Shown here piece after piece: positions 6,905 to 17,154 of a stretch of 64,000 bases of DNA. The stretch is from contig CAWIAU010000001.1 of assembly GCA_963834265.1 (NCBI GenBank), forward strand, positions 652,346-716,345, written 5' to 3'. The position numbers and the translations under genes are program-made. The notes below the pieces were generated by a model. That model did no database searches. It was not told the origin of the DNA and was given only the letters and a program-made list of their open reading frames with translations. The DNA is from an uncultured bacterium (GTDB lineage Bacteria; Patescibacteriota; Saccharimonadia; Saccharimonadales; 2-12-FULL-41-12). The number at the start of each line of letters is the position of its first letter. The first letter of the stretch is position 1.

Positions 6905-7762
6905 ATGGATGGTGACAATAGTGACCTTGATCAAATGGACTATCCAAAGTATGCTCCTCCGACGTCAACACCTACTACACCAGCCGTAAGACATAGAATA
7001 TTCGGCAGGACTACCACAGTTCTGGGATCAGTTGCGACCAGAACTTCGTTACGCATCAGGCAAATAGCGGCGTACGAAGTTAATATTCCTCAGCCCAGAG
7101 AAATTGTCGCCGGACTCAAACATATTATTCCCGGTACATCCCGTAACGAGAAGACTGACGCCGGTCATAATAATGACAATGAGAAAAAAGATAATAAAAA
7201 AGTTATATCAGATTCTGTTCCTCTTCAAACAATGAAAACAGGCGCTTATACCGATTCTGAAGATGAGCTTCGCAAAGGTAATAAATCTCAGCAGGATACC
7301 GGTTCTGAGCAAAAGCAACAGGATAAAATAACTACAGATGCGGAGCGTGACGATAAACTTAAAAAAATTCTGGCCGAATCCAATGAAGTACTGGCCAGTG
7401 CCAACACCGTATTTCCTTTTAGCCTGTTTCCTGACAGCGTGGTACTCGATCGCACCAAGGTTACCATTACACGTCGTAATTTTTTCTTCTCCAGCGAGGT
7501 TATGAGCATGCGTATCGACGATATCCTGAATGTTACAACAAGCGTAGGCCCTTTTCTCGGCTCTGTGACCCTGGCTGGTCGGGTTCTGAGTTCAGAAGAT
7601 CATTTTACTATAACGAACTTCTGGCGTAATGACGCGATCCATCTCAAGCACATTATACAAGGCTACATCATAGCCAGGCACAACAACATAGATTGTGAGC
7701 ATCTGGGCAAAGAAGAATTAATCGCTACTCTGACAAGACTAGGCCACGATACCGGTAATTAA
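6905..7762 (+). CDS. hypothetical protein with a C-terminal bacterial PH (bPH_2/DUF304)-like domain
   Basis: Disordered, charged N-terminal half. The C-terminal LFPDSVVLDRTKVTITRRNFFFSSEVMSMRIDDILNVTTSVGPFLGSVTL pattern resembles bPH_2 domains. Confidence 0.5.
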   Translation: MDGDNSDLDQMDYPKYAPPTSTPTTPAVRHRIFGRTTTVLGSVATRTSLRIRQIAAYEVNIPQPREIVAGLKHIIPGTSRNEKTDAGHNNDNEKKDNKKVISDSVPLQTMKTGAYTDSEDELRKGNKSQQDTGSEQKQQDKITTDAERDDKLKKILAESNEVLASANTVFPFSLFPDSVVLDRTKVTITRRNFFFSSEVMSMRIDDILNVTTSVGPFLGSVTLAGRVLSSEDHFTITNFWRNDAIHLKHIIQGYIIARHNNIDCEHLGKEELIATLTRLGHDTGN

Positions 7763-7799: not shown

Positions 7800-9437
7800 C
7801 TAAACCTGCGTTTTCTCCAGCTTAGCTACTACTTCCCGTGCTACGGATACGGTAGTTATAAGCGTCGTATTAGTTTTGACAGCTTTTTCACGGATTATCT
7901 GACCATCAGTCTTTTCTTTCTCTTTACTCTCTTTTGGATCATCAGACGATGGAATGTTGATGATGATGTCGAAGCGGTTGGCATCTAAAAGATCGCCGAG
8001 GTTCGGCTTGAGCTCAGGGCTGCTTATTTTATTGACGAGAATAGCCTCAATGCCGTTCGTCCTGAGGAATTTGTGGGTTTTGTAGGTTCCATAGAGCTGA
8101 TAGCCCATACGATGTAACGCTTTGATTTGCGGCAATAGTTTAAGTTTCTGAGCCCGGCCGCCTACCGCCAGCAGTGCTGTACGTTTGCGCCGCTGCGCCA
8201 GTTTCATCTGCAGAGTGTAGTGCTCTATAAAACCTGCTGATGCATTCTGGTTGAAAAGCTCGTTAGAATCCATAAATGTGGCCAGTTTTTCGTCAAATAT
8301 CGTGTTCGGTGTTTCGACAGCGACAGCTTCGATATGACCTTTAAAGAGTTTAACCGTGACACTTCCGGTGATTTTATCATTCACCTTATCCTCATATGCA
8401 TTGAGATCATCCATTAGCGGCTCAAACCATAGCGCACCATATACAAGATACGCCCATTTTTCATCAACAATGGATTTGAATTCATTTTCGAGTCGGGTAG
8501 AAGTATAGCGCTCCAGAGCTTTATGAGCGGTAATAATTGTTTCGGCAGCCGGGGCTTCGTAAATCCCTCGTACTTTGAGGCCAATGACGCGGTCTTCCAG
8601 CAAGTGAACTATGCCGATAGAGTGTTCGGCAGCACGCTTGTTCAACTCAAAGATAATATCGACCAGTGACATTTGTTTGTCGTCGATAGCTATAGGAAGA
8701 CCTTTTTCAAATTCGAGTTTAATATATTCAGGTGTATCTCGGGCCTTTTCAGGTGTTTTGCAGATCTGCAGGATCTTTTCCAGCGGTGGAATTAACCCCG
8801 GATCTTCTATCTCCCCACCTTCGCCGGTGACACCCCACATATTGTCATCGTAACTATATGGCTTTTCTTTGGTCTGCTTGACGGGTATTCCGTGCTTTTT
8901 ACAGTATTCCAGCTGCTCGTCGCGTCCCATGCCCCATTCACGTACGGGAGCAATGATTTTGATATCCGGATTCATAGCTAAGGCGGAACCCTCGATACGA
9001 ATCTGATCATTACCTTTACCTGTGGCACCGTGTGCGATCGCGTCAGCGCCTTCCTGTGCAGCTATCCTGACAGCCCATTTGGCTAATAATGGTCGTCCAA
9101 GTGGTGTGGAGAGATAATAACGACCCTGGTACATACCGTTGGCCTTTATTCCAGGTGCAATATACTGCTCAGCAAATTCTTCTTTGGCATCGATAACGTA
9201 GGCCTGACTTGCACCCAGCTTCAGAGCTTTTGCCTTGATAGCATCCAGGTCATCGGCTTGCTGGCCGATATCAATCGTCAGAGCTATTACCTCTGCTTTA
9301 TATTCATCCTGAATCCACTTCAACATCGTTGAAGTATCCAGTCCTCCGGAATACAACAGGACAACTTTTTTGACCTCGCCCTTGCGCCCCTCATGCGATG
9401 CTACTTTGACATATTGGTTTTTACCCTTTAGCGCCAT
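7800..9437 (-). CDS. argG: argininosuccinate synthase fused to a C-terminal MGS-like (CarB allosteric-type) domain
   Basis: ArgG motifs YSGGLDTS and HGATGKGNDQIRIE, full-length ArgG body. The last ~127 aa (7803..8183), ALLAVGGRAQKLKLLPQIKALHRMGYQLYGTYKTHKFLRTNGIEAILVNK...IIINIPS...IREKAV...LITT, align by eye to the CarB C-terminal MGS-like domain. Confidence 0.9.
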   Translation of the reverse strand: MALKGKNQYVKVASHEGRKGEVKKVVLLYSGGLDTSTMLKWIQDEYKAEVIALTIDIGQQADDLDAIKAKALKLGASQAYVIDAKEEFAEQYIAPGIKANGMYQGRYYLSTPLGRPLLAKWAVRIAAQEGADAIAHGATGKGNDQIRIEGSALAMNPDIKIIAPVREWGMGRDEQLEYCKKHGIPVKQTKEKPYSYDDNMWGVTGEGGEIEDPGLIPPLEKILQICKTPEKARDTPEYIKLEFEKGLPIAIDDKQMSLVDIIFELNKRAAEHSIGIVHLLEDRVIGLKVRGIYEAPAAETIITAHKALERYTSTRLENEFKSIVDEKWAYLVYGALWFEPLMDDLNAYEDKVNDKITGSVTVKLFKGHIEAVAVETPNTIFDEKLATFMDSNELFNQNASAGFIEHYTLQMKLAQRRKRTALLAVGGRAQKLKLLPQIKALHRMGYQLYGTYKTHKFLRTNGIEAILVNKISSPELKPNLGDLLDANRFDIIINIPSSDDPKESKEKEKTDGQIIREKAVKTNTTLITTVSVAREVVAKLEKTQV

Positions 9438-9561
9438 TTTATCCTTAAATTTTACTAATTTAGTAATAAAATCCAGTCATTTTGCTTGTAAAATGTCCAA
9501 ATTACTCAAAATTGTATAGATTACCGCTAGCAATGTCAACCCACTTTGCTATACTGGGATC

Positions 9562-10134
9562 ATGAAATATAAGGTTGGTGTTTTTGGATCCAGTGCCGGT
9601 GATATGAGTCTGGCTTTGCCCGGCGCCATTGAGTTAGGGCGTGTTTTCGGCGAATATGCCGATCATTTGATCATCATCACAGGTGGTTGCGCGGGTTTGC
9701 CCTATGAAGTTGCCAAAAAAGCCCACAGCTCCGATGTAGAAATCCGGGGATATTCAGCCGAAATAAATATGGATGAATTGCAAAAAAGTGCTCCTGATGA
9801 CGATCACTCGATTTATTCGGAACTCCGGTTTGTGCCAACTAACTTTCCATTAGCCCAAACTAGAAGCGCGCGAATGAAATATAGAAACGTTATCTCAACA
9901 GCTAATTGCGACGCCGGAATCATTATCTCCGGTCGCTGGGGCACTCTGAATGAGTTCACAAATCTAATTGACCAGCAAAAGATAGTTGGCGTACTGACAG
10001 ATACCGGTGGAATAGCTGATGAACTGCCAGAACTGACCCGCAAAATTTCCAAAGCAGGCCAGGGCAGAATTATCTTTGAAAGTGATCCGGGAAAGTTAGT
10101 CGGGAAAATACTTACGACTTTAAAGACTGCTTGA
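9562..10134 (+). CDS. LOG / TIGR00725-family Rossmann-fold protein
   Basis: VGVFGSS...TGGCAGLPYEVAKKA...SGRWGTLNEF follows the LOG-family GGxxG / PGGxGTxxE pattern. Confidence 0.6.
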   Translation: MKYKVGVFGSSAGDMSLALPGAIELGRVFGEYADHLIIITGGCAGLPYEVAKKAHSSDVEIRGYSAEINMDELQKSAPDDDHSIYSELRFVPTNFPLAQTRSARMKYRNVISTANCDAGIIISGRWGTLNEFTNLIDQQKIVGVLTDTGGIADELPELTRKISKAGQGRIIFESDPGKLVGKILTTLKTA

Positions 10135-11206
10135 TTTCTGCAGCAAGATTGGTGTTCCACATGGCGGCTGTGACGGATTGAACTAAATCTGCACCGGCAC
10201 TGCGGTAATCATGAAAATCATCCGGCGTCATAACACCACCTATGCCTATAATTTCATAATCGTAATTATATTTTTTGCGAATTTCGAACAGACGCCTGAC
10301 CATATCCACTCCGGCCCACTTAATGCCTGCTCCGCAAACACCACTACGAAGACGTCCCTTGCCCGGCAGCATCTGATTACCATATTTGTCTACTATTGCC
10401 GCAGGAATAGTATTTATTGCAGAATAGGCTCTCAAATACGGAGCGCTGTCCTTTATTATTTGCTCCAGCAAATCCTGTTGGACGGGGGCAAAATAGCCGA
10501 GCTTTCCGATCAGAGGTATATCGCCAACAGCTTCTTTAACTTTGCGTGCGATTGTTACCACTGAGTCATGGTTATAGCAAAGAACTCCTTCGCTGGCCAC
10601 ATTCGGGCATGAGAAGTTTACTTCTATCACTTTGACGCCAGTGCTCGCCGCCAGCTTCGCCGTATAAGCAAAATCATCGAAGTAATCCTGCTGACTAAAT
10701 CTTTCTTTGATAGTCCCTACAACACCCGCAATCAGAAGCTGTCCTTTGCCTTGCGCAGAAAAAGATTTTTTCATATCTTCAACCCAGAAATCCGGGCCAC
10801 GGGACGGATTCCCGAATGAATTAGTAATGGTAAGCTTTTCGAGCGATGTATCAGATGTCATACGCCCTATAAGCGGCTGTGCGGCTTTCTCCAATGTCAA
10901 ATCCCCATCCACCTCAACATATACGACATTAGGAAATTCATTCGCAGGGAATGACAAGCTGCGCTGCGTTTTATAGACATTTACATCAAAACCCCGCTCA
11001 AAAGCATGCCTGATGTGTTTACTCGTTGGCAATGATCCGGCGCCGATGCCAAACGGAGAATATATAGGAAAACCTAAGAAACTGTATGCAGGCTCTCCGG
11101 TATTTTTAAATGCTGCTGCTGTTAAATCTGCGGGAAAAGGACCATTATCAAAGTTATCGTCGAAAGTTTTAGCTGGATCTGAAAATACTGCTTTTCGATC
11201 GGGCAT
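10112..11206 (-). CDS. pyrD: dihydroorotate dehydrogenase family protein
   Basis: NFSCPNV active-site loop, GIGGV near the C-terminus, and location next to pyrF/pyrE. Confidence 0.7.
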   Translation of the reverse strand: MPDRKAVFSDPAKTFDDNFDNGPFPADLTAAAFKNTGEPAYSFLGFPIYSPFGIGAGSLPTSKHIRHAFERGFDVNVYKTQRSLSFPANEFPNVVYVEVDGDLTLEKAAQPLIGRMTSDTSLEKLTITNSFGNPSRGPDFWVEDMKKSFSAQGKGQLLIAGVVGTIKERFSQQDYFDDFAYTAKLAASTGVKVIEVNFSCPNVASEGVLCYNHDSVVTIARKVKEAVGDIPLIGKLGYFAPVQQDLLEQIIKDSAPYLRAYSAINTIPAAIVDKYGNQMLPGKGRLRSGVCGAGIKWAGVDMVRRLFEIRKKYNYDYEIIGIGGVMTPDDFHDYRSAGADLVQSVTAAMWNTNLAAEIKQSLKS

Positions 11207-11246: not shown

Positions 11247-12074
11247 ATGACTTTCATGGAGAAACTTGATACCTGCGTGTCAAAAAATGACTCCTTGCTG
11301 TGCGTGGGATTAGATCCCGATATCAGTAAATTACCAGAGGGCCATAATCAATACAGCTTTAATAAAGCTATTATCGATGCTACTCACGATTTGGTTTGCT
11401 CCTATAAGCCCAATCCTGCATTCTACGAAGCGCTTGGAGCTGAGGGTGTAGCCAATCTTGAAAAAACCTGCAACTATATTAAACAAAAATATCCGGGAAT
11501 TCCTATCATTCTTGATTGCAAAAGAGGTGATATCGGAAATACAAATGCGGCATACGCAGGTGCTGTTTTCGAATTCATGACAGCCGACGCAGCTACCGTT
11601 CATCCTTATTTTGGGAAAGAGTCATTAATCCCGTTTCTTGAGTATAAAGATAAAGGTATCATTGTCATGTGCAAGTCTTCTAACGCCGGCGGCGGCGAAT
11701 TCCAGGACTTGCAACTATCTGATATGAAGCTTTACGAATATATCGCGCATCAAGTAGTTACTGAGTGGAATATACATAATAATTGTATGCTTATGGTGGG
11801 AGCGACGTATCCGGCCGAATTAGCAACTGTCCGAAAAATTGCGGGACCCGATATGCAGATTCTGGTGCCGGGTATTGGAGTTCAGCAGGGGAATATTGAA
11901 GAAATGCTGAAAGCAGGTTTAAATAGCGAAGGTTTGGGCTTAATCATAAATTCTTCGCGTGAAATTATTTTTGCATCCGGAGGTACGGACTTTATTGTGG
12001 CCGCACGCGCAAAAGCTATTGAAGTCCGGAAAAGAATTAATCAGTACAGAAATACAGGAATGAGTACATCATGA
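11247..12074 (+). CDS. pyrF: orotidine 5'-phosphate decarboxylase
   Basis: LCVGLDPD and ILDCKRGDIGNT motifs. Start moved to ATG 11247 (MTFMEKLD...), because the track start 11013 would be antisense to pyrD. Confidence 0.85.
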   Translation: MTFMEKLDTCVSKNDSLLCVGLDPDISKLPEGHNQYSFNKAIIDATHDLVCSYKPNPAFYEALGAEGVANLEKTCNYIKQKYPGIPIILDCKRGDIGNTNAAYAGAVFEFMTADAATVHPYFGKESLIPFLEYKDKGIIVMCKSSNAGGGEFQDLQLSDMKLYEYIAHQVVTEWNIHNNCMLMVGATYPAELATVRKIAGPDMQILVPGIGVQQGNIEEMLKAGLNSEGLGLIINSSREIIFASGGTDFIVAARAKAIEVRKRINQYRNTGMSTS

Positions 12075-12679
12075 GCATTGAGGATCAAAAACGCATGCTT
12101 GCACTGGATTTATACGATATCGGAGCCTTGAAGTTCGGAGAATTTACATTCAAAAGCGGTATTGTCAGCCCGATGTATATAGATCTGCGTTTGTTTATCA
12201 GCTATCCAAAGGTGCTTAAAAAAGTAGTAAATATTTATGCGGGGTTGCTTAAAGACTTAACGTATGACCGTTTGGCAGGAGTCGCTTATGCTGCCTTACC
12301 GATAGCAGGTGCGGTAAGCCTGGAGATAGAACGTCCATGGGTTTTTTTACGCAAAGAAGGAATCAAAAAAGAATACGGTTTACAGAAAAGTTTAGAAGGA
12401 GAATACACTAAGGGCGAGACCGTCGTTATGATAGAAGATTTGGTTACACGCGCTACCTCGTTATTAGAAGTCATTCCCGTTATTGAAGAGCATGGATTGG
12501 TTGTCAAAGATGCTGTGGTACTCATTGATTATGGCAAAGGAGGTCCTCAGAATATGAAATCTAAAGGTTATGTCGTCCATGCCTTTATAACTACCGTGGA
12601 GTTAGTTACTATAATGCATTCAGAAAACAAAATTGATGATAATAAATATCAACAATGTTTAGAATTTCTCGCAAAATAG
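12071..12679 (+). CDS. pyrE: orotate phosphoribosyltransferase
   Basis: PRPP-binding loop VVMIEDLVTRATS; 4-nt overlap with pyrF. Confidence 0.85.
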   Translation: MSIEDQKRMLALDLYDIGALKFGEFTFKSGIVSPMYIDLRLFISYPKVLKKVVNIYAGLLKDLTYDRLAGVAYAALPIAGAVSLEIERPWVFLRKEGIKKEYGLQKSLEGEYTKGETVVMIEDLVTRATSLLEVIPVIEEHGLVVKDAVVLIDYGKGGPQNMKSKGYVVHAFITTVELVTIMHSENKIDDNKYQQCLEFLAK

Positions 12680-12785
12680 TTTTTTGATATTTTACTCTTT
12701 ATATTAATGTTCAAAACGGTTGTGCTTGATCTCTGGAATACGTATAATTCTAAGGAAGAGAAACAACTAAATAAAAGTGAGTGCG

Positions 12786-13994
12786 ATGAGAATATTGATG
12801 CTTGGGTGGGAATTACCGCCCAATAACAGTGGTGGGCTAGGTGTGGCATGCCTTGCTCTCTGCAAAACTCTCTCGCAAAAAGGTGTGTCAATCCAGTTTG
12901 TCCTTCCCTACAAGGCTGATCACGGAATTGATTTTATGGATGTAATCGCGAGCAGCAATAACCTGCCCTCCCGGATATTTGGTGCTTATGACAGCTCACA
13001 ATTTCTTCCCGGTTTGTCAGCCGAAGACCTAAGTTCCGCAAGTGATATTTTCGCAATTGAATCACAATACCAGAATAAAGTTAGAAAAATCGTCAAGGAA
13101 CGTACATTTGATCTTATACATGCACATGACTGGCTTACATTCCGGGCAGGGCTCAGGGCACGCGAACTATCCGGAAAACCCCTGATCCTGCATGTACACT
13201 CCGTGGAGTCAGATCGTGCCGGGTCTAAACAAGGTAACCCGTTAGTGCATGAGATAGAAGAGTTGGGACTGACTCTGGCAGATCATATTGTAGCCGTCAG
13301 CGAACTTACCAAACAGAAGATTGTGCATAACTACCATATTCCTGCCGATAAGATTACTGTGGCTCATAATAGTATCGATAGAGAGCATATTGCGCCCCTT
13401 GATCCTATCAACACCTATCATTATCTTAGCAACCTCAAGAGTCAGGGTTATAAGGTTGTCGTCAGTATTGGCCGTCTGACTATCCAGAAAGGGCTGTATA
13501 ATTTCCTGGGAGCTGCAGCCAGAGTAGTATCGCACCAGCCCAAAACCATTTTTCTGATTGTTGGCTCTGGTGAGCTTGAACATGAACTGATCAGTCGTTC
13601 AGCAGAGCTTGGTATCGGACGGAATGTACTGTTTATAGGATTCCAGCGTGGTAAGCAGTGGCGGGATGCATTTGCAATTGCAGATTTGTTTGTTATGCCC
13701 TCAGTATCTGAGCCTTTCGGATTGACTCCACTTGAAGCAATCGGGTATGGTACGCCGGTGTTGATAAGTAAACAGTCCGGCGTCTCAGAAGTGCTGATGA
13801 ATTGTCTCAAAACAGATTACTGGGATACAGACAAAATGGCGAATGATATAACTGCAGTACTTCGTTATCACACTTTGCAGCAAACTCTGGCTGCCAATGC
13901 TGTTCAGGAGCTGGCATCTCTTAGTTGGCACAATACAGCCGATAAACTGATGAATATATATAGAACCCATATTCCAGCTGGAGCTGCGGTATGA
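12786..13994 (+). CDS. GT4/GT5-type glycosyltransferase, glycogen-synthase-like
   Basis: MRILMLGWELPPNNSGGLGVAC N-terminus and the EPFGLTPLEA motif. Operon with GH57 and GH15 genes. The start may instead be GTG 12777. Confidence 0.8.
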   Translation: MRILMLGWELPPNNSGGLGVACLALCKTLSQKGVSIQFVLPYKADHGIDFMDVIASSNNLPSRIFGAYDSSQFLPGLSAEDLSSASDIFAIESQYQNKVRKIVKERTFDLIHAHDWLTFRAGLRARELSGKPLILHVHSVESDRAGSKQGNPLVHEIEELGLTLADHIVAVSELTKQKIVHNYHIPADKITVAHNSIDREHIAPLDPINTYHYLSNLKSQGYKVVVSIGRLTIQKGLYNFLGAAARVVSHQPKTIFLIVGSGELEHELISRSAELGIGRNVLFIGFQRGKQWRDAFAIADLFVMPSVSEPFGLTPLEAIGYGTPVLISKQSGVSEVLMNCLKTDYWDTDKMANDITAVLRYHTLQQTLAANAVQELASLSWHNTADKLMNIYRTHIPAGAAV

Positions 13995-15193
13995 AAGAAA
14001 AATCCATAGTTCTGTATATGCATGTGCACCAGCCATTTCGTGTAAAAAACTACACAATTTTTGATATTGATCAGGATCATAATTATTTTGATGCCCCCTA
14101 TGATCACCGCACAAGTAATGAACAGATTATCCATAAAGTAGCCGGAAAATCATACTTACCGGCCAACCAGCGTCTTCTGAAGCTGCTGCGTGAACATCCT
14201 GCATTCAGGCTCAGCCTGTCAATCAGCGGTGTAGCACTGGAGCAAATGCAACAATGGGCTCCGGAAGCTCTGGCATCATTTCAAGAGCTGGCGGCTACGG
14301 GACAGGTTGAGATTGTTGGAGAAACCTATCATCACAGTCTGGCATTTTTTTATGACCGTCAGGAATTTGAGGCACAGGTAAATAAGCATCGTAACATCAT
14401 TCAGGCATTATTCGCTCAGACACCTACTGCCTTTCGCAATACAGAACTTGCTTACAACAATGATCTGGCTTACTGGGCCGATCAGACAGGATATAAAGTC
14501 ATTCTGGCCGAGGGCTGGGATCCGGTACTTGACTGGCGCAGCCCGAACTTTGTCTACGAACCCACCTACACTACAAGAGGGGTTAAACTACTGCTTAAGA
14601 ATTATCGCCTGAGTGATGATATTGCTTTTCGCTTCGGAGATCAGAACTGGAGCCAGTGGCCATTGACAGCAGATAAATTTACTAACTGGCTGCGATCGTC
14701 CGGTGATGGCACAAACTTCAATCTCTTTATGGATTATGAGACTTTCGGAGAGCATCAGTGGCATGAATCAGGTATTTTTGATTTCCTGGAACATTTGCCC
14801 AAAGAATGGCTGAGGGATGGCCATCATACATTCAAAACTGTCAGCCAGATTGCAGATGACAATAATCCGGTTGATCGGGTCGATATGCCCGATATTGTTA
14901 CATGGGCAGACACTGAGCGTGATCTATCAGCCTGGACAGGTAATGCGATGCAGCAGGAAGCTATAGCCGGTATCTACGACCTACGGGACAAAATTCTGGC
15001 ATCGGGTGACGATAAGCTGATAGAAGACTGGCGCCGACTACAAACTTCTGATCATTTTTATTACATGTGCACCAAATGGTTCAATGACGGCGATATTCAT
15101 GCGTATTTCAGTCCCTATGAGAATCCGTATGAGGCCTATATAGCTTTCATGAATGCATGGCATGATCTGAGATTAAGGGCAGGAGCAATTTAA
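13991..15193 (+). CDS. glycoside hydrolase family 57-like enzyme
   Basis: N-terminal LYMHVHQPFR and the later FMDYETFGEHQW pattern are typical of GH57. 4-nt overlap with the upstream GT gene. Confidence 0.75.
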   Translation: MKEKSIVLYMHVHQPFRVKNYTIFDIDQDHNYFDAPYDHRTSNEQIIHKVAGKSYLPANQRLLKLLREHPAFRLSLSISGVALEQMQQWAPEALASFQELAATGQVEIVGETYHHSLAFFYDRQEFEAQVNKHRNIIQALFAQTPTAFRNTELAYNNDLAYWADQTGYKVILAEGWDPVLDWRSPNFVYEPTYTTRGVKLLLKNYRLSDDIAFRFGDQNWSQWPLTADKFTNWLRSSGDGTNFNLFMDYETFGEHQWHESGIFDFLEHLPKEWLRDGHHTFKTVSQIADDNNPVDRVDMPDIVTWADTERDLSAWTGNAMQQEAIAGIYDLRDKILASGDDKLIEDWRRLQTSDHFYYMCTKWFNDGDIHAYFSPYENPYEAYIAFMNAWHDLRLRAGAI

Positions 15194-17154
15194 TGGCACG
15201 TGCAGTAATGCTTGGAAATGGAAGCTTAGCAGTTGGCCTGGATGAACATGGTCTGGTTCATGACTTCTACTATCCTTACGTTGGTCTCGATAACCTGACG
15301 ACGGCCAGAAGCGTACATCATAAGATCGGCGTATGGATAGATAGCCGCTTCAGCTGGGTAGATGACGATAACGGATGGGATATCAGTGCTAACTTTGAGT
15401 CGGATGCTCTCGTCAGCCGGATACGCATGCAAAATAACGAACTTCAGGTGGAATTGTTATTTAGTGATTTTGTCGACTATGAATTCAATGCTTTTGGCCG
15501 GAAAATTACAGTTGTTAATCAGGCTGGTGATGAACGTGAAATACGGGTGTTTATGCATCAGGTATTTCAGATATCCCGGGCAGGCCGGGCCGATACGGCT
15601 CTGTTTGTTCCGGAAGAAAATTATATCCTGACTTATCGGGGTCGGTGTTGTCTTCTTGCGTATGGTCAGATAACTGACGGAAAACCATTCGACCAGTTTG
15701 CAATCGGGAATTATGGAATCGAAGGCAAAGAAGGCACTTTTCGGGATGCAGAGGACGGTGAACTCTCCGGGAGTGCTGTAGAGCATGGCGGCGTAGACTC
15801 TGTCATAAGATTTTCTGTCCGCCTGCCAGCAGGTTCCGGAACCGGGATCGATTATTGGATTGTAGCTGCCGATTCCCAGCTGGCAGCAGAAAAAATCCAC
15901 CATGATTTCAAAAAAGAAGGTCTGAGCGAGCGGCTGAAGATAAATTACAGATACTGGAATGAATGGTTGGCAATCGGCTCCAATGCTTTGCACAGTGTAG
16001 ACAAAGAGTATTTGGAGCTGACCAAGAAGTCATTACTTATTATCAAAGCACACATGGACAAGCGCGGAGGAGTTATAGCATCACTTGACTCCTCCATATA
16101 TAACTATGGTCGGGATTACTACAGTTATGTATGGCCCAGGGATGGGGCCTATGCGATATGGCCATTAATTCGGCTCGGATATCAGGATGAACCAAAGAAA
16201 TTTTTTGAATTTTGCCGTGACGTTCTTAGACCAGAAGGCTATCTGATGCACAAATACCAACCCGACAAAGCCATTGGCAGTACCTGGCATCCGCTTCTGC
16301 ACGGTGAAAAAATTGAACTGGCGATACAGGAGGATGAAACAGCCAGTGTTATTTACATGCTGGGAGAATATTATACTTATTCGCAGGATACCGAGTTCGT
16401 ACGGAGTGTATACGAAACGCTAATTCAGCCTGCAGCGGACTTTATGACAAGTTTTATAGATGAGCAGACCGGCCTGCCACATGCCAGTTATGATCTCTGG
16501 GAAATGAAGTTTCTGACCAGCACTTACACAACGGCAGTAGTTTATCAGGCTTTATTAGTGGCAGCAGAGTTTGCTGAAAAATTTGAATATCCCGATGATG
16601 CTTTGCGCTGGAATAACTGTGCTGAGATAATATTGAAAAATTCAGATATTTTCTTTAACGCGAGTCGTCAGGCTTTGCGCAAAGGATTTTTACTTGACGG
16701 TGATGGTTCTTTGCAGTTTGAAGATACACTGGACGTGTCCAGCCTGTACGGAACGGCAATGTACGGCCTGCACAAAGACAATGCGTGGCTTATTGATACT
16801 TTGGAAGCAGTCAAAACATATTTGCTGGATATAACGCCTTCCGGGGGAGCAGCGAGATTTGAGCATGATGGTTATTTTCTGTCCGATAATAGGTTTACGG
16901 GTAATCCGTGGATAGTTACAACATTATGGATTGCACAATATTATATACGCATTCATGAACCGGTGGTGGCGCATGGTTATGTTAAATGGGCCATGGATAC
17001 AGCACTGAGTAGTGGCATGTTACCGGAACAAATACATCCGGAAACAGGAGCTGTCACATCCGTAACACCCCTTGTATGGAGTCATGCCGAATTTATAAAT
17101 ACTGTTTTGGATCTCTCCAGAGTTAGCAAATCGAAATTAGAAAATAATGACTAG
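15193..17154 (+). CDS. glycoside hydrolase family 15 (glucoamylase/glucodextranase-like)
   Basis: YSYVWPRDGAYA and LPEQIHPETG...PLVWSHAEF motifs of GH15. Confidence 0.85.
   Translation: MARAVMLGNGSLAVGLDEHGLVHDFYYPYVGLDNLTTARSVHHKIGVWIDSRFSWVDDDNGWDISANFESDALVSRIRMQNNELQVELLFSDFVDYEFNAFGRKITVVNQAGDEREIRVFMHQVFQISRAGRADTALFVPEENYILTYRGRCCLLAYGQITDGKPFDQFAIGNYGIEGKEGTFRDAEDGELSGSAVEHGGVDSVIRFSVRLPAGSGTGIDYWIVAADSQLAAEKIHHDFKKEGLSERLKINYRYWNEWLAIGSNALHSVDKEYLELTKKSLLIIKAHMDKRGGVIASLDSSIYNYGRDYYSYVWPRDGAYAIWPLIRLGYQDEPKKFFEFCRDVLRPEGYLMHKYQPDKAIGSTWHPLLHGEKIELAIQEDETASVIYMLGEYYTYSQDTEFVRSVYETLIQPAADFMTSFIDEQTGLPHASYDLWEMKFLTSTYTTAVVYQALLVAAEFAEKFEYPDDALRWNNCAEIILKNSDIFFNASRQALRKGFLLDGDGSLQFEDTLDVSSLYGTAMYGLHKDNAWLIDTLEAVKTYLLDITPSGGAARFEHDGYFLSDNRFTGNPWIVTTLWIAQYYIRIHEPVVAHGYVKWAMDTALSSGMLPEQIHPETGAVTSVTPLVWSHAEFINTVLDLSRVSKSKLENND

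Follow-up and report, generated by a model that had tools for sequence, protein, structure and literature searches.

The gene at positions 7800..9437 (minus strand) of the window, i.e., the whole 64-kb stretch of DNA that was analysed, encodes a canonical argininosuccinate synthase (ArgG) that continues at its C-terminus into a CarB-type MGS-like domain. This protein (referred to as ArgG-MGS) is strictly co-inherited with an amidohydrolase of family NF005365, and its gene clusters with a variant pyrD, pyrF, and pyrE. The reading that we prefer, and to which we assign a probability of roughly 55%, is that of a two-part enzyme in which an ArgG core would be joined to an allosteric CarB-type sensor, and which would feed arginine synthesis and probably also a bypass into pyrimidine synthesis.

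The argG-MGS gene is a single uninterrupted ORF (545 aa plus stop). Its N-terminal ATP-pyrophosphatase (HUP) domain (aa 24–185; 8883..9368, minus strand) matches PF00764 (Arginosuc_synth, E 1.4e-65) and includes the PP-loop 28-LYSGGLDTS-36 and the motif 136-HGATGKGNDQIR-147, both of which align to T. thermophilus 1j1z. The C-terminal ArgG domain (aa 194–413; 8199..8858, minus strand) matches PF20979 (Arginosuc_syn_C, E 1.2e-64) and carries the substrate motif 280-LEDRVIGLKVRGIYEAP-296. The family motifs SGGxDTS, GATGKGNDQxR, and E(D/N)RxxGxKxRGxYExP are all present and align to 1j1z and 6xnq, with the individual substrate contacts being assigned on the assumption that they are those of ASS1. 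The protein scored above the cut-offs of the NCBIfam ArgG equivalogs (507.4 bits vs. 334 for NF001770, and 459.2 vs. 268.2 for TIGR00032), and its AF2 model (pLDDT of 87) matched 6xnq, 1kh1, 1vl2, and 2nz2 in Foldseek (TMt 0.86–0.92). From this full conservation of family motifs and predicted fold, we infer that the core condenses citrulline with aspartate, at the expense of ATP, to yield argininosuccinate.

When compared to the short-type ArgG/ASS1 enzymes (EC 6.3.4.5; e.g., 1J1Z and 1KH1, 6XNQ from Legionella pneumophila, and human 2NZ2), aa 24–413 align with E-values of 1e-104 to 1e-106 and 38–43% identity, and the fold (TM ~0.9), the PP-loop, and the substrate motifs are held in common. 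However, the solved ArgGs all end after their C-terminal helix (at 380–445 aa), whereas ArgG-MGS adds a CarB-type domain of 126 aa. A short basic linker (AQRRKR, aa 414–419; 8181..8198, minus strand) leads from the end of the ArgG alignment (aa 413) to the first MGS strand (aa 420), and the CarB/CPS-type MGS-like effector domain then occupies aa 420–545 (7803..8180, minus strand), as delineated by PF02142, a profile search against the PDB, and Foldseek. The PF02142 match itself spans aa 434–528 (E 2.8e-13, 50.2 bits vs. a cut-off of 24.1; 52.2 bits for the tail alone). The original prediction of an ArgG fused to a CarB-type MGS-like domain was thereby confirmed by Pfam domains, NCBIfam equivalogs, and Foldseek folds alike, as was the position it gave for the MGS part (nt 7803–8180).

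Two separate genes could in principle have been joined by an indel or the loss of a stop codon around 8180–8200, although nothing was found in favor of such an artefact. A search of sequencing runs listed a single one, DNA from a soil metagenome with 0.09 of the words, and no RNA run. The best 120 protein clusters (73–93% identity) are all ca. 545 aa long, and the same three-domain arrangement recurs in at least 120 clusters. Moreover, the ArgG/MGS junction is encoded in 121 species genomes from Saccharimonadia and other Patescibacteria, the linker is conserved, and there is no stand-alone gene boundary at the junction. Since the reading frame continues across the junction in more than 120 clusters from independent sources and in those 121 genomes, the artefact was rejected, and its likelihood is close to nil. 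Many of the metagenome-assembled genomes with the module bear the label 'uncultured Gammaproteobacteria'. A literature search revealed no publication describing an ArgG-MGS fusion or the pyrimidine route proposed below; a 2026 preprint reports argG and argH to be enriched in one Saccharimonadia genus, and does not mention the extra domain.

Searched on its own, the tail best matched the C-terminus of CarB (PRK05294 positions 937–1050, E 2.6e-12). A profile search against the PDB retrieved CPS1 (E 1e-20), E. coli CarB (E 1.8e-10), and PurH (1.9e-5), and no match to MgsA, while the top 18 Foldseek matches of the domain model were all CarB or CPS1 (TM 0.68–0.76, rmsd 2.4–4.2 Å), ranking ahead of PurH and methylglyoxal synthase (MgsA, ~0.63). 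Judged by profile and modelled fold, CarB and CPS1 therefore provide, with their allosteric domains, the nearest characterized relatives of the tail, the best match on both counts being to CarB 933–1073 (1CE8, with IMP) and human CPS1 (2YVQ, and 5DOU with N-acetylglutamate). In a phylogenetic tree, the MGS domains borne by ArgG, PyrD-like, amidohydrolase, and aaRS-like proteins separated from those of CarB (support 94/92). Being fused to ArgG in a genome in which no CarB was found, the domain was classified as CarB-type rather than as CarB.

The conserved pocket residues of the domain (i.e., K431, T451, T454, K470, N494, D511, and R516) are the equivalents of CarB K954, T974, T977, K993, N1015, D1025, and R1030. 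Among 60 ArgG-MGS proteins, K431, T454, and K470 (CarB K954, T977, and K993) are invariant, and T451 and N494 (CarB T974 and N1015) are kept in at least 90%. The K993 position holds a Lys in ArgG-MGS, as in the nucleotide-binding CarB, and a Trp in CPS1, and the CarB T1017 position has become a Pro. Lys954, Thr974, and Asn1015 are taken by us to be nucleotide-site residues of CarB. In E. coli CarB, the binding of UMP and inhibition by it depend critically on Thr977 and Lys993 (PMC6245113). A site for a nucleotide or another phospho-ligand is thus plausible from these residues, and the CarB-type domain may sense an effector that carries a phosphate, with nucleoside monophosphates such as UMP or IMP being the likeliest candidates. 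Phosphate binding is general among domains of the MGS fold, so the effector might be something other than a nucleotide. By analogy to the homologous domain of CarB, the sensor would control the ArgG core.

The expectation that the domain binds UMP, IMP, and ornithine is consequently plausible for the nucleotide site, given the invariant T977 and K993 equivalents, but not for ornithine. In CarB, ornithine binds where the allosteric domain meets the carbamoyl-phosphate-synthetic domain (PMC6245113). In ArgG-MGS, the domain sits on ArgG instead of on an ATP-grasp synthetase, Pfam detected neither an ATP-grasp nor a carbamoyl-phosphate-synthetic domain, and the sole ornithine-site residue kept is T528 (equivalent to CarB Thr1042). 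Because the carbamoyl-phosphate-synthetic domain is absent, the site cannot form and CarB-like ornithine sensing is not transferable.

The tail might also bind no ligand at all and serve as a structural or oligomerization module, e.g., by stabilizing the ArgG tetramer or by docking it to other MGS-bearing enzymes. The allosteric domain of CarB does make inter-subunit contacts, and in ArgG-MGS the tail directly follows the C-terminal helix that mediates oligomerization in solved ArgGs. Furthermore, this MGS subtype is also fused to amidohydrolase-family and PyrD-like proteins in other lineages, where several enzymes of one operon bear it. Nevertheless, the invariant K431, T454, and K470 correspond to the phosphate/nucleotide pocket of CarB instead of to a surface patch, and the genome studied here encodes only one MGS domain, leaving no heterotypic partner. 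A purely structural tail is therefore improbable.

The genes around argG-MGS also turned out as originally described, with a divergent LOG-family gene and adjacent pyrD-like, pyrF, and pyrE genes all being supported by profile matches. The divergent gene (9562..10134, plus strand) belongs to SLOG cluster 4 of the LOG superfamily (PF18306, E 1.5e-14), and is followed by a divergent dihydroorotate-dehydrogenase-like gene (variant PyrD; 10112..11206, minus strand; PF01180, E 8.5e-20), which reached only 78 bits vs. the NCBIfam PyrD cut-off of 269. Next are pyrF, encoding OMP decarboxylase (11247..12074, plus strand; TIGR02127, 240 bits vs. 110.6), and pyrE, encoding orotate phosphoribosyltransferase (12071..12679, plus strand; TIGR00336, 123 bits vs. 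106.8). The start of pyrF is likely the ATG at 11247, since the longest ORF runs from 11013 but the family match begins later. Upstream of argG-MGS, a consensus scan alone picked up a promoter-like site (TTGACA-17-TACAAT, 11/12; 9511..9539, minus strand) in a region where such sites are no more numerous than in shuffles. The absence of other arginine-pathway genes from the window likewise stood, in that no match to ArgH, OTC, or ADI was found within its 64 kb.

In the genome from which the window derives (95.8% complete), CarB was not found (with only a weak 423-aa ATP-grasp match), and there was no OTCace_N match that would indicate PyrB or OTC, nor a TIGR00857 match for PyrC. A canonical de novo pyrimidine pathway, with CarAB, PyrB, and PyrC upstream of PyrD/E/F, was thus not recovered, and the suggested rationale that ArgG and pyrimidine synthesis compete for aspartate was not borne out, as no PyrB, CarB, or PyrC was found. 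The sole Amidohydro_1 protein of this genome is the NF005365 amidohydrolase, encoded ca. 500 kb from argG-MGS and beside argH. The latter (298 bits, above cut-off; 490 kb from argG-MGS) is in an operon-like row with argS and a gene for an ArgB-like kinase. Neither an ADI nor a DDAH-like gene was found. With its amidohydrolase distant and the DDAH-like gene missing, this genome represents a variant of the module described below.

Since the amidohydrolase is 500 kb away and a normal ArgH is present, a plain citrulline-to-arginine role would suffice in this genome. Arginine salvage could account for the fusion more generally, with ArgG-MGS and ArgH only turning imported citrulline into arginine, the MGS domain tuning this conversion to nucleotide status, the amidohydrolase serving pyrimidine salvage as an unrelated base deaminase, and the pyr neighborhood reflecting shared regulation. 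Under the preferred reading, too, citrulline would have to be imported here, because no OTC, ADI, or DDAH-like enzyme was found. The operon-like setting of argH and the fully canonical ArgG core are in line with this explanation, as is the presence of ArgH in 23 of 50 other ArgG-MGS genomes. Data from these and further genomes, however, make it rather unlikely, albeit far from negligible.

In particular, ArgH was not found in six of the eight Saccharimonadia genomes with the fusion (98–100% complete), nor in the remaining 27 of those 50 further genomes (which may be incomplete), which would leave argininosuccinate without a known consumer, whereas unfused ArgG always has ArgH adjacent. Moreover, NF005365 occurs in 7 of 301 Saccharimonadia genomes, spread over five families, and these are exactly the seven with the ArgG-MGS type studied here (7/7 vs. 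0/294 without it, with related genomes being non-independent samples). Such strict co-occurrence argues against an unrelated deaminase, and so does the fusion of amidohydrolase and DHODH into a single ORF in two species, which is unexpected for a salvage enzyme.

Across 80 ArgG-MGS species loci, the amidohydrolase is present in 66, lies within 1.2 kb of argG-MGS in 59, and is usually beside pyrD/F/E. PyrD-like genes occur in 42 of these loci and PyrF in 32, while ArgH occurs in only 5; a homologue of the SLOG gene was found in 11. In contrast to ArgG/ASS1, ArgG-MGS thus sits within pyrimidine gene clusters, and many of the genomes that encode it yielded no ArgH, CarB, or PyrB. The association with pyrimidine genes in the original prediction is conserved across species loci and no coincidence of the window. 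ArgG-MGS therefore seems to form part of the pyrimidine module proper; while the co-occurrence is plain, functional membership, beyond a role in arginine synthesis only, is what it would suggest. The presence of this MGS subtype on amidohydrolase-family and PyrD-like proteins also speaks for such a module. Some genomes deviate from this pattern. In 9 of the 80 loci, carB and pyrB are beside argG-MGS, and one genome (G173) has ArgG-MGS together with a DDAH-like and a PyrC-like gene, with no NF005365 or ArgH found; both count against the preferred reading. PyrF without PyrB was rejected as specific proof of a bypass, since 42 genomes of the class show this pattern while lacking ArgG-MGS. An aaRS-like-MGS protein was likewise rejected as a substitute for ArgG-MGS, as both are encoded in shared operons.

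The partner amidohydrolase belongs to an NCBIfam family of its own (NF005365), which is named only 'hypothetical protein'. Its nearest solved relatives are AtzC (E 1e-16) and CodA (1e-12 to 1e-14), and the occurrence of cytosine deaminases among them is a further point in favor of arginine salvage with an independent deaminase. It is not a canonical PyrC, given that it has no TIGR00857 match and no dihydroorotase among its solved-structure matches at E ≤ 0.001. With AtzC (N-isopropylammelide isopropylaminohydrolase, 2QT3/4CQB) and CodA it shares the metal ligands (HxH, His, His, and Asp), although it is ca. 100 aa shorter. AtzC strips an N-alkylamine off a ring amidine carbon, which would be the chemistry needed to free ornithine from cyclized argininosuccinate.

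We tentatively propose, while considering it more probable that this part of the reading fails, that ArgG-MGS and the NF005365 amidohydrolase together open a route to pyrimidines that needs no carbamoyl phosphate. ArgG-MGS would convert citrulline, aspartate, and ATP into argininosuccinate, upon which the amidohydrolase would convert argininosuccinate, or its six-membered cyclic anhydride (i.e., dihydroorotate with ornithine on C2), into dihydroorotate and ornithine, and the variant PyrD, PyrE, and PyrF would finish UMP. The first committed step would then be subject to UMP-type feedback through the CarB-type domain, which would have moved from CarB to the replacement of CarB. In the genome studied here, argininosuccinate would have two fates, i.e., conversion to arginine by ArgH and, probably, to a pyrimidine ring precursor by the amidohydrolase.

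A DDAH- or ArgZ-like hydrolase could instead split argininosuccinate into ornithine and carbamoyl-aspartate, with the amidohydrolase acting as a non-orthologous dihydroorotase. In 31 of the 80 loci, a DDAH-like gene comes immediately after argG-MGS, G173 combines such a gene with ArgG-MGS and a PyrC-like gene while lacking NF005365, and in carA-carB-pyrB loci the amidohydrolase occupies the expected place of pyrC. However, two genomes (G308 and G336) have ArgG-MGS, the amidohydrolase, and pyrD/F/E, with no DDAH-like gene, ArgH, or OTC/ATCase found, and since the genome studied here likewise yielded no DDAH-like gene, such a gene was rejected as an obligatory member in all three. Moreover, DDAH-type enzymes split off the substituent on N-omega and would thereby merely reverse the ArgG reaction, and the resemblance of the amidohydrolase to AtzC and CodA speaks against a dihydroorotase. 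Such a route is therefore very unlikely, and direct action of the amidohydrolase on (cyclized) argininosuccinate remains our preferred form of the bypass.

To our knowledge, de novo pyrimidine synthesis is generally assumed to run via carbamoyl phosphate, ATCase, and dihydroorotase in all organisms, and metabolic scoring usually marks it as missing from Patescibacteria. Like the CarAB-PyrB-PyrC system with its UMP feedback, the arrangement described here has a regulatory domain on the ATP-using, aspartate-linked head enzyme of a cluster ending in pyrD-pyrF-pyrE; in many species, ArgG-MGS and the AtzC-like hydrolase take the place of CarB, PyrB, and PyrC. A related solution is known from Thermococcus kodakarensis, in which arginine-derived carbamoyl phosphate is supplied for pyrimidines via the arginine synthetase ArcE and the OTC ArcB (PMC13260591). 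In both cases an organism without carbamoyl-phosphate synthetase would take its pyrimidine carbamoyl unit from arginine or citrulline, but the T. kodakarensis route passes through carbamoyl phosphate via OTC and then PyrB and PyrC, whereas here no OTC or ATCase was found, and argininosuccinate would serve as the intermediate.

If true, the bypass would show how citrulline or arginine could serve some ultra-small bacteria as the starting material for pyrimidines. If it fails, ArgG-MGS would still be the first ArgG known to have an allosteric domain of its own, and would illustrate how the effector module of CarB has been put to use on other enzymes. In both cases, the scoring of argG in metabolic reconstructions of these genomes would change.

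The argG-MGS gene (7800-9437, minus strand) is a single 545-aa ORF in which Pfam matched the two ArgG domains (aa 24-185 and aa 194-413, each at E about 1e-65) and an MGS-like domain (aa 434-528; 50 bits vs. a cut-off of 24), and for which two NCBIfam ArgG equivalogs exceeded their cut-offs (507 and 459 bits). The originally predicted architecture, an argininosuccinate synthase with a C-terminal MGS-like domain, was thus confirmed. Residues 2-389 of Thermus thermophilus ArgG aligned end to end with aa 24-413 (E 1e-104), and in this alignment the PP-loop, GATGKGNDQ and EDR..G.K.RG.YE.P motifs are retained. The AlphaFold model (pLDDT 87) superimposed on solved short-type ArgGs with a TM of about 0.9; unlike ArgG-MGS, however, none of these structures carries an extra C-terminal domain.

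An artefactual fusion was ruled out, since the best 120 protein clusters (from NCBI, JGI, ENA and Logan; 73-93% identity) are all about 545 aa long with an identical three-domain layout, and since, with each species represented by one scanned genome, the ArgG/MGS junction is encoded in 121 species. The titles of these records name Saccharimonadia, Levy-, Roizman- and Gottesmanbacteria, unclassified Patescibacteria and many "uncultured Gammaproteobacteria" MAGs. Among loci L056-L109, many MAGs whose operon is Patescibacteria-like bear the title "uncultured Gammaproteobacteria bacterium", and single ones that of Limisphaerales or Acidiferrales; such MAGs may be mislabelled or mis-binned.

The predicted likeness of the tail to CarB was borne out by both sequence and fold. 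Searched alone, the tail best matched the final ~115 positions of the NCBIfam CarB models, and when it was modelled alone (pLDDT 88) the top 18 Foldseek matches were allosteric domains of E. coli CarB and human CPS1 (TM 0.68-0.76, including the E. coli CarB IMP complex 1CE8), with methylglyoxal synthases and PurH ranking lower. A profile of 30 MGS domains of this type was aligned to E. coli CarB 941-1043, and conservation was scored in these 30 domains and in 60 ArgG-MGS proteins. K431 and T454 (CarB K954 and T977) are invariant, as is K470 (K993) among the 60 proteins; T451, N494 and R516 (T974, N1015 and R1030) are conserved to at least 90%, D511 (D1025) is invariant in the 30 domains and at least 90% conserved in the 60 proteins, and T1017 is replaced by a proline (P496). 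Judged from these conserved residues, the tail therefore retains the nucleotide/phosphate pocket of CarB; a review of CarB regulation places IMP binding in this beta-sheet domain and describes T977 and K993 as crucial for UMP inhibition and binding (PMC6245113). Of the UMP, IMP and ornithine binding of that domain, the nucleotide part is plausible here, but an ornithine site of the CarB kind cannot be retained. A domain tree split CarB MGS domains from those fused to other enzymes (support 94/92). The closest relatives of the tail are fused to ArgG, the NF005365-type amidohydrolase family, PyrD-like proteins and a class-II-aaRS-like core. We infer that ArgG is regulated through this tail, the only MGS domain in the source genome, which would bind an effector of the nucleotide type.

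The pyrimidine neighbourhood was likewise recovered in the window, in which genes for a SLOG protein and a very divergent DHODH-like protein, together with pyrF and pyrE, lie beside argG-MGS. The SLOG gene (cluster-4/TIGR00725-like; 9562-10134, plus strand) is oriented divergently to argG-MGS, and its position there is no coincidence: homologues occur in 11 of 80 loci in which other species carry ArgG-MGS, mostly between pyrD and pyrF, and a nucleotide-processing role is plausible. The pyrD-like gene (10112-11206, minus strand) scores 78 bits vs. NCBIfam cut-offs of about 270, its first ~125 aa are without match, and relatives of it elsewhere are joined to the amidohydrolase and to MGS and PRTase domains. 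The longest pyrF ORF begins at 11013, overlapping this opposite-strand gene; because the family match starts near aa 80, translation probably begins with the ATG at 11247. A glycogen-type row (12777-17154, plus strand) follows pyrE directly; its genes encode a glycosyltransferase resembling GT4/starch synthases, a GH57 enzyme and a glucoamylase-like enzyme of GH15. On the other side, a 285-aa ORF (6905-7762, plus strand) converges on argG-MGS; its N-terminal half is charged and of low complexity, neither Pfam nor NCBIfam gave a match, and relatives have DDAH-like and amidohydrolase genes in its place. In the source genome (1.08 Mb, 95.8% complete), no CarB, OTC/ATCase of any kind, TIGR00857-type PyrC, arginine deiminase or DDAH-like hydrolase was found.

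Among 301 Saccharimonadia species genomes, 16 matched the ArgG-MGS protein: 8 with fused ArgG-MGS, 7 with unfused ArgG, and one (G275) solely through an MGS domain within an ORF the size of CarB. NF005365, the amidohydrolase family, occurs in exactly the 7 genomes with 80-100% identical ArgG-MGS, which span five families and in none of which a PyrB-type ATCase was found. ArgH adjoins every unfused ArgG, and NF005365 was found in none of those genomes; no ArgH was found in 6 of the 8 fused genomes, all six 98-100% complete.

In 80 species loci, an amidohydrolase gene lies near ArgG-MGS in 66 (within 1.2 kb in 59), followed by PyrD-like (42), PyrF (32), DDAH/ArgZ-like hydrolase (31), PyrE (17), CarB and PyrB (9 each) and ArgH (5). 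ArgH was not found in 27 of 50 further ArgG-MGS genomes; in two of these (G308 and G336) a DDAH-like gene and OTC/ATCase were also not found, and ArgG-MGS, amidohydrolase and pyrD/F/E are kept together. Microgenomates operons with ArgG-MGS, amidohydrolase and PyrD-like genes also hold a class-II-aaRS-like catalytic core (tRNA-synt_2) that lacks an anticodon domain and is joined to this MGS subtype (P0134, P0150, P0169; L086 10400-11815 and L094 10524-12011, both plus strand), which in P0134 (1134 aa) continues into DHO_dh and PRTase.

The sole Amidohydro_1 protein of the source genome lies about 490 kb from argG-MGS and belongs to NF005365 ("hypothetical protein"; 428 bits vs. a cut-off of 340). 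Its metal ligands are intact; among solved structures it is closest in sequence to AtzC (E 1e-16) and to cytosine deaminase, and no dihydroorotase is matched; in two species it forms one 715-737-aa protein with DHODH. Chemically, closing argininosuccinate into its six-membered anhydride gives dihydroorotate bearing ornithine at C2, and AtzC-type enzymes strip N-alkylamines off such ring carbons. Tentatively, at a probability of roughly one in three, the amidohydrolase would consume argininosuccinate to yield dihydroorotate and ornithine.

Several observations count against over-reading the module: PyrF without PyrB is common among Saccharimonadia that have no ArgG-MGS (42 genomes), carAB and pyrB are kept beside the module in some loci, and the compared genomes are kin to one another. 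Moreover, in G173 (L023, G173:C31:2000-21000) a 58%-identical ArgG-MGS and a DDAH-like gene directly adjoin canonical pyrB-carB-carA, with a PyrC-like gene in the cluster, but neither NF005365 nor ArgH was found, an arrangement that may be intermediate or mixed. The source genome itself is a variant of the module, with a split operon, no DDAH-like gene and ArgH present, and plain citrulline-to-arginine salvage therefore stays a live rival there. Its amidohydrolase gene is divergent from a row of ArgH, an ArgB-like amino-acid kinase (137 bits, under the argB cut-off of 151), argS and a HAD gene (G000:C1:160655-166500; L029 8656-14497); no other arginine-biosynthesis gene was found that would account for the kinase-like gene.

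Our literature search found no paper describing the ArgG-MGS architecture or the proposed carbamoyl-phosphate-free route, the closest published idea being arginine-derived carbamoyl phosphate via OTC in Thermococcus (PMC13260591). That route, however, requires OTC and PyrB, neither of which was found in the source genome. The fusion, its conservation, its CarB pocket residues and its inheritance together with NF005365 and late pyr genes are established.
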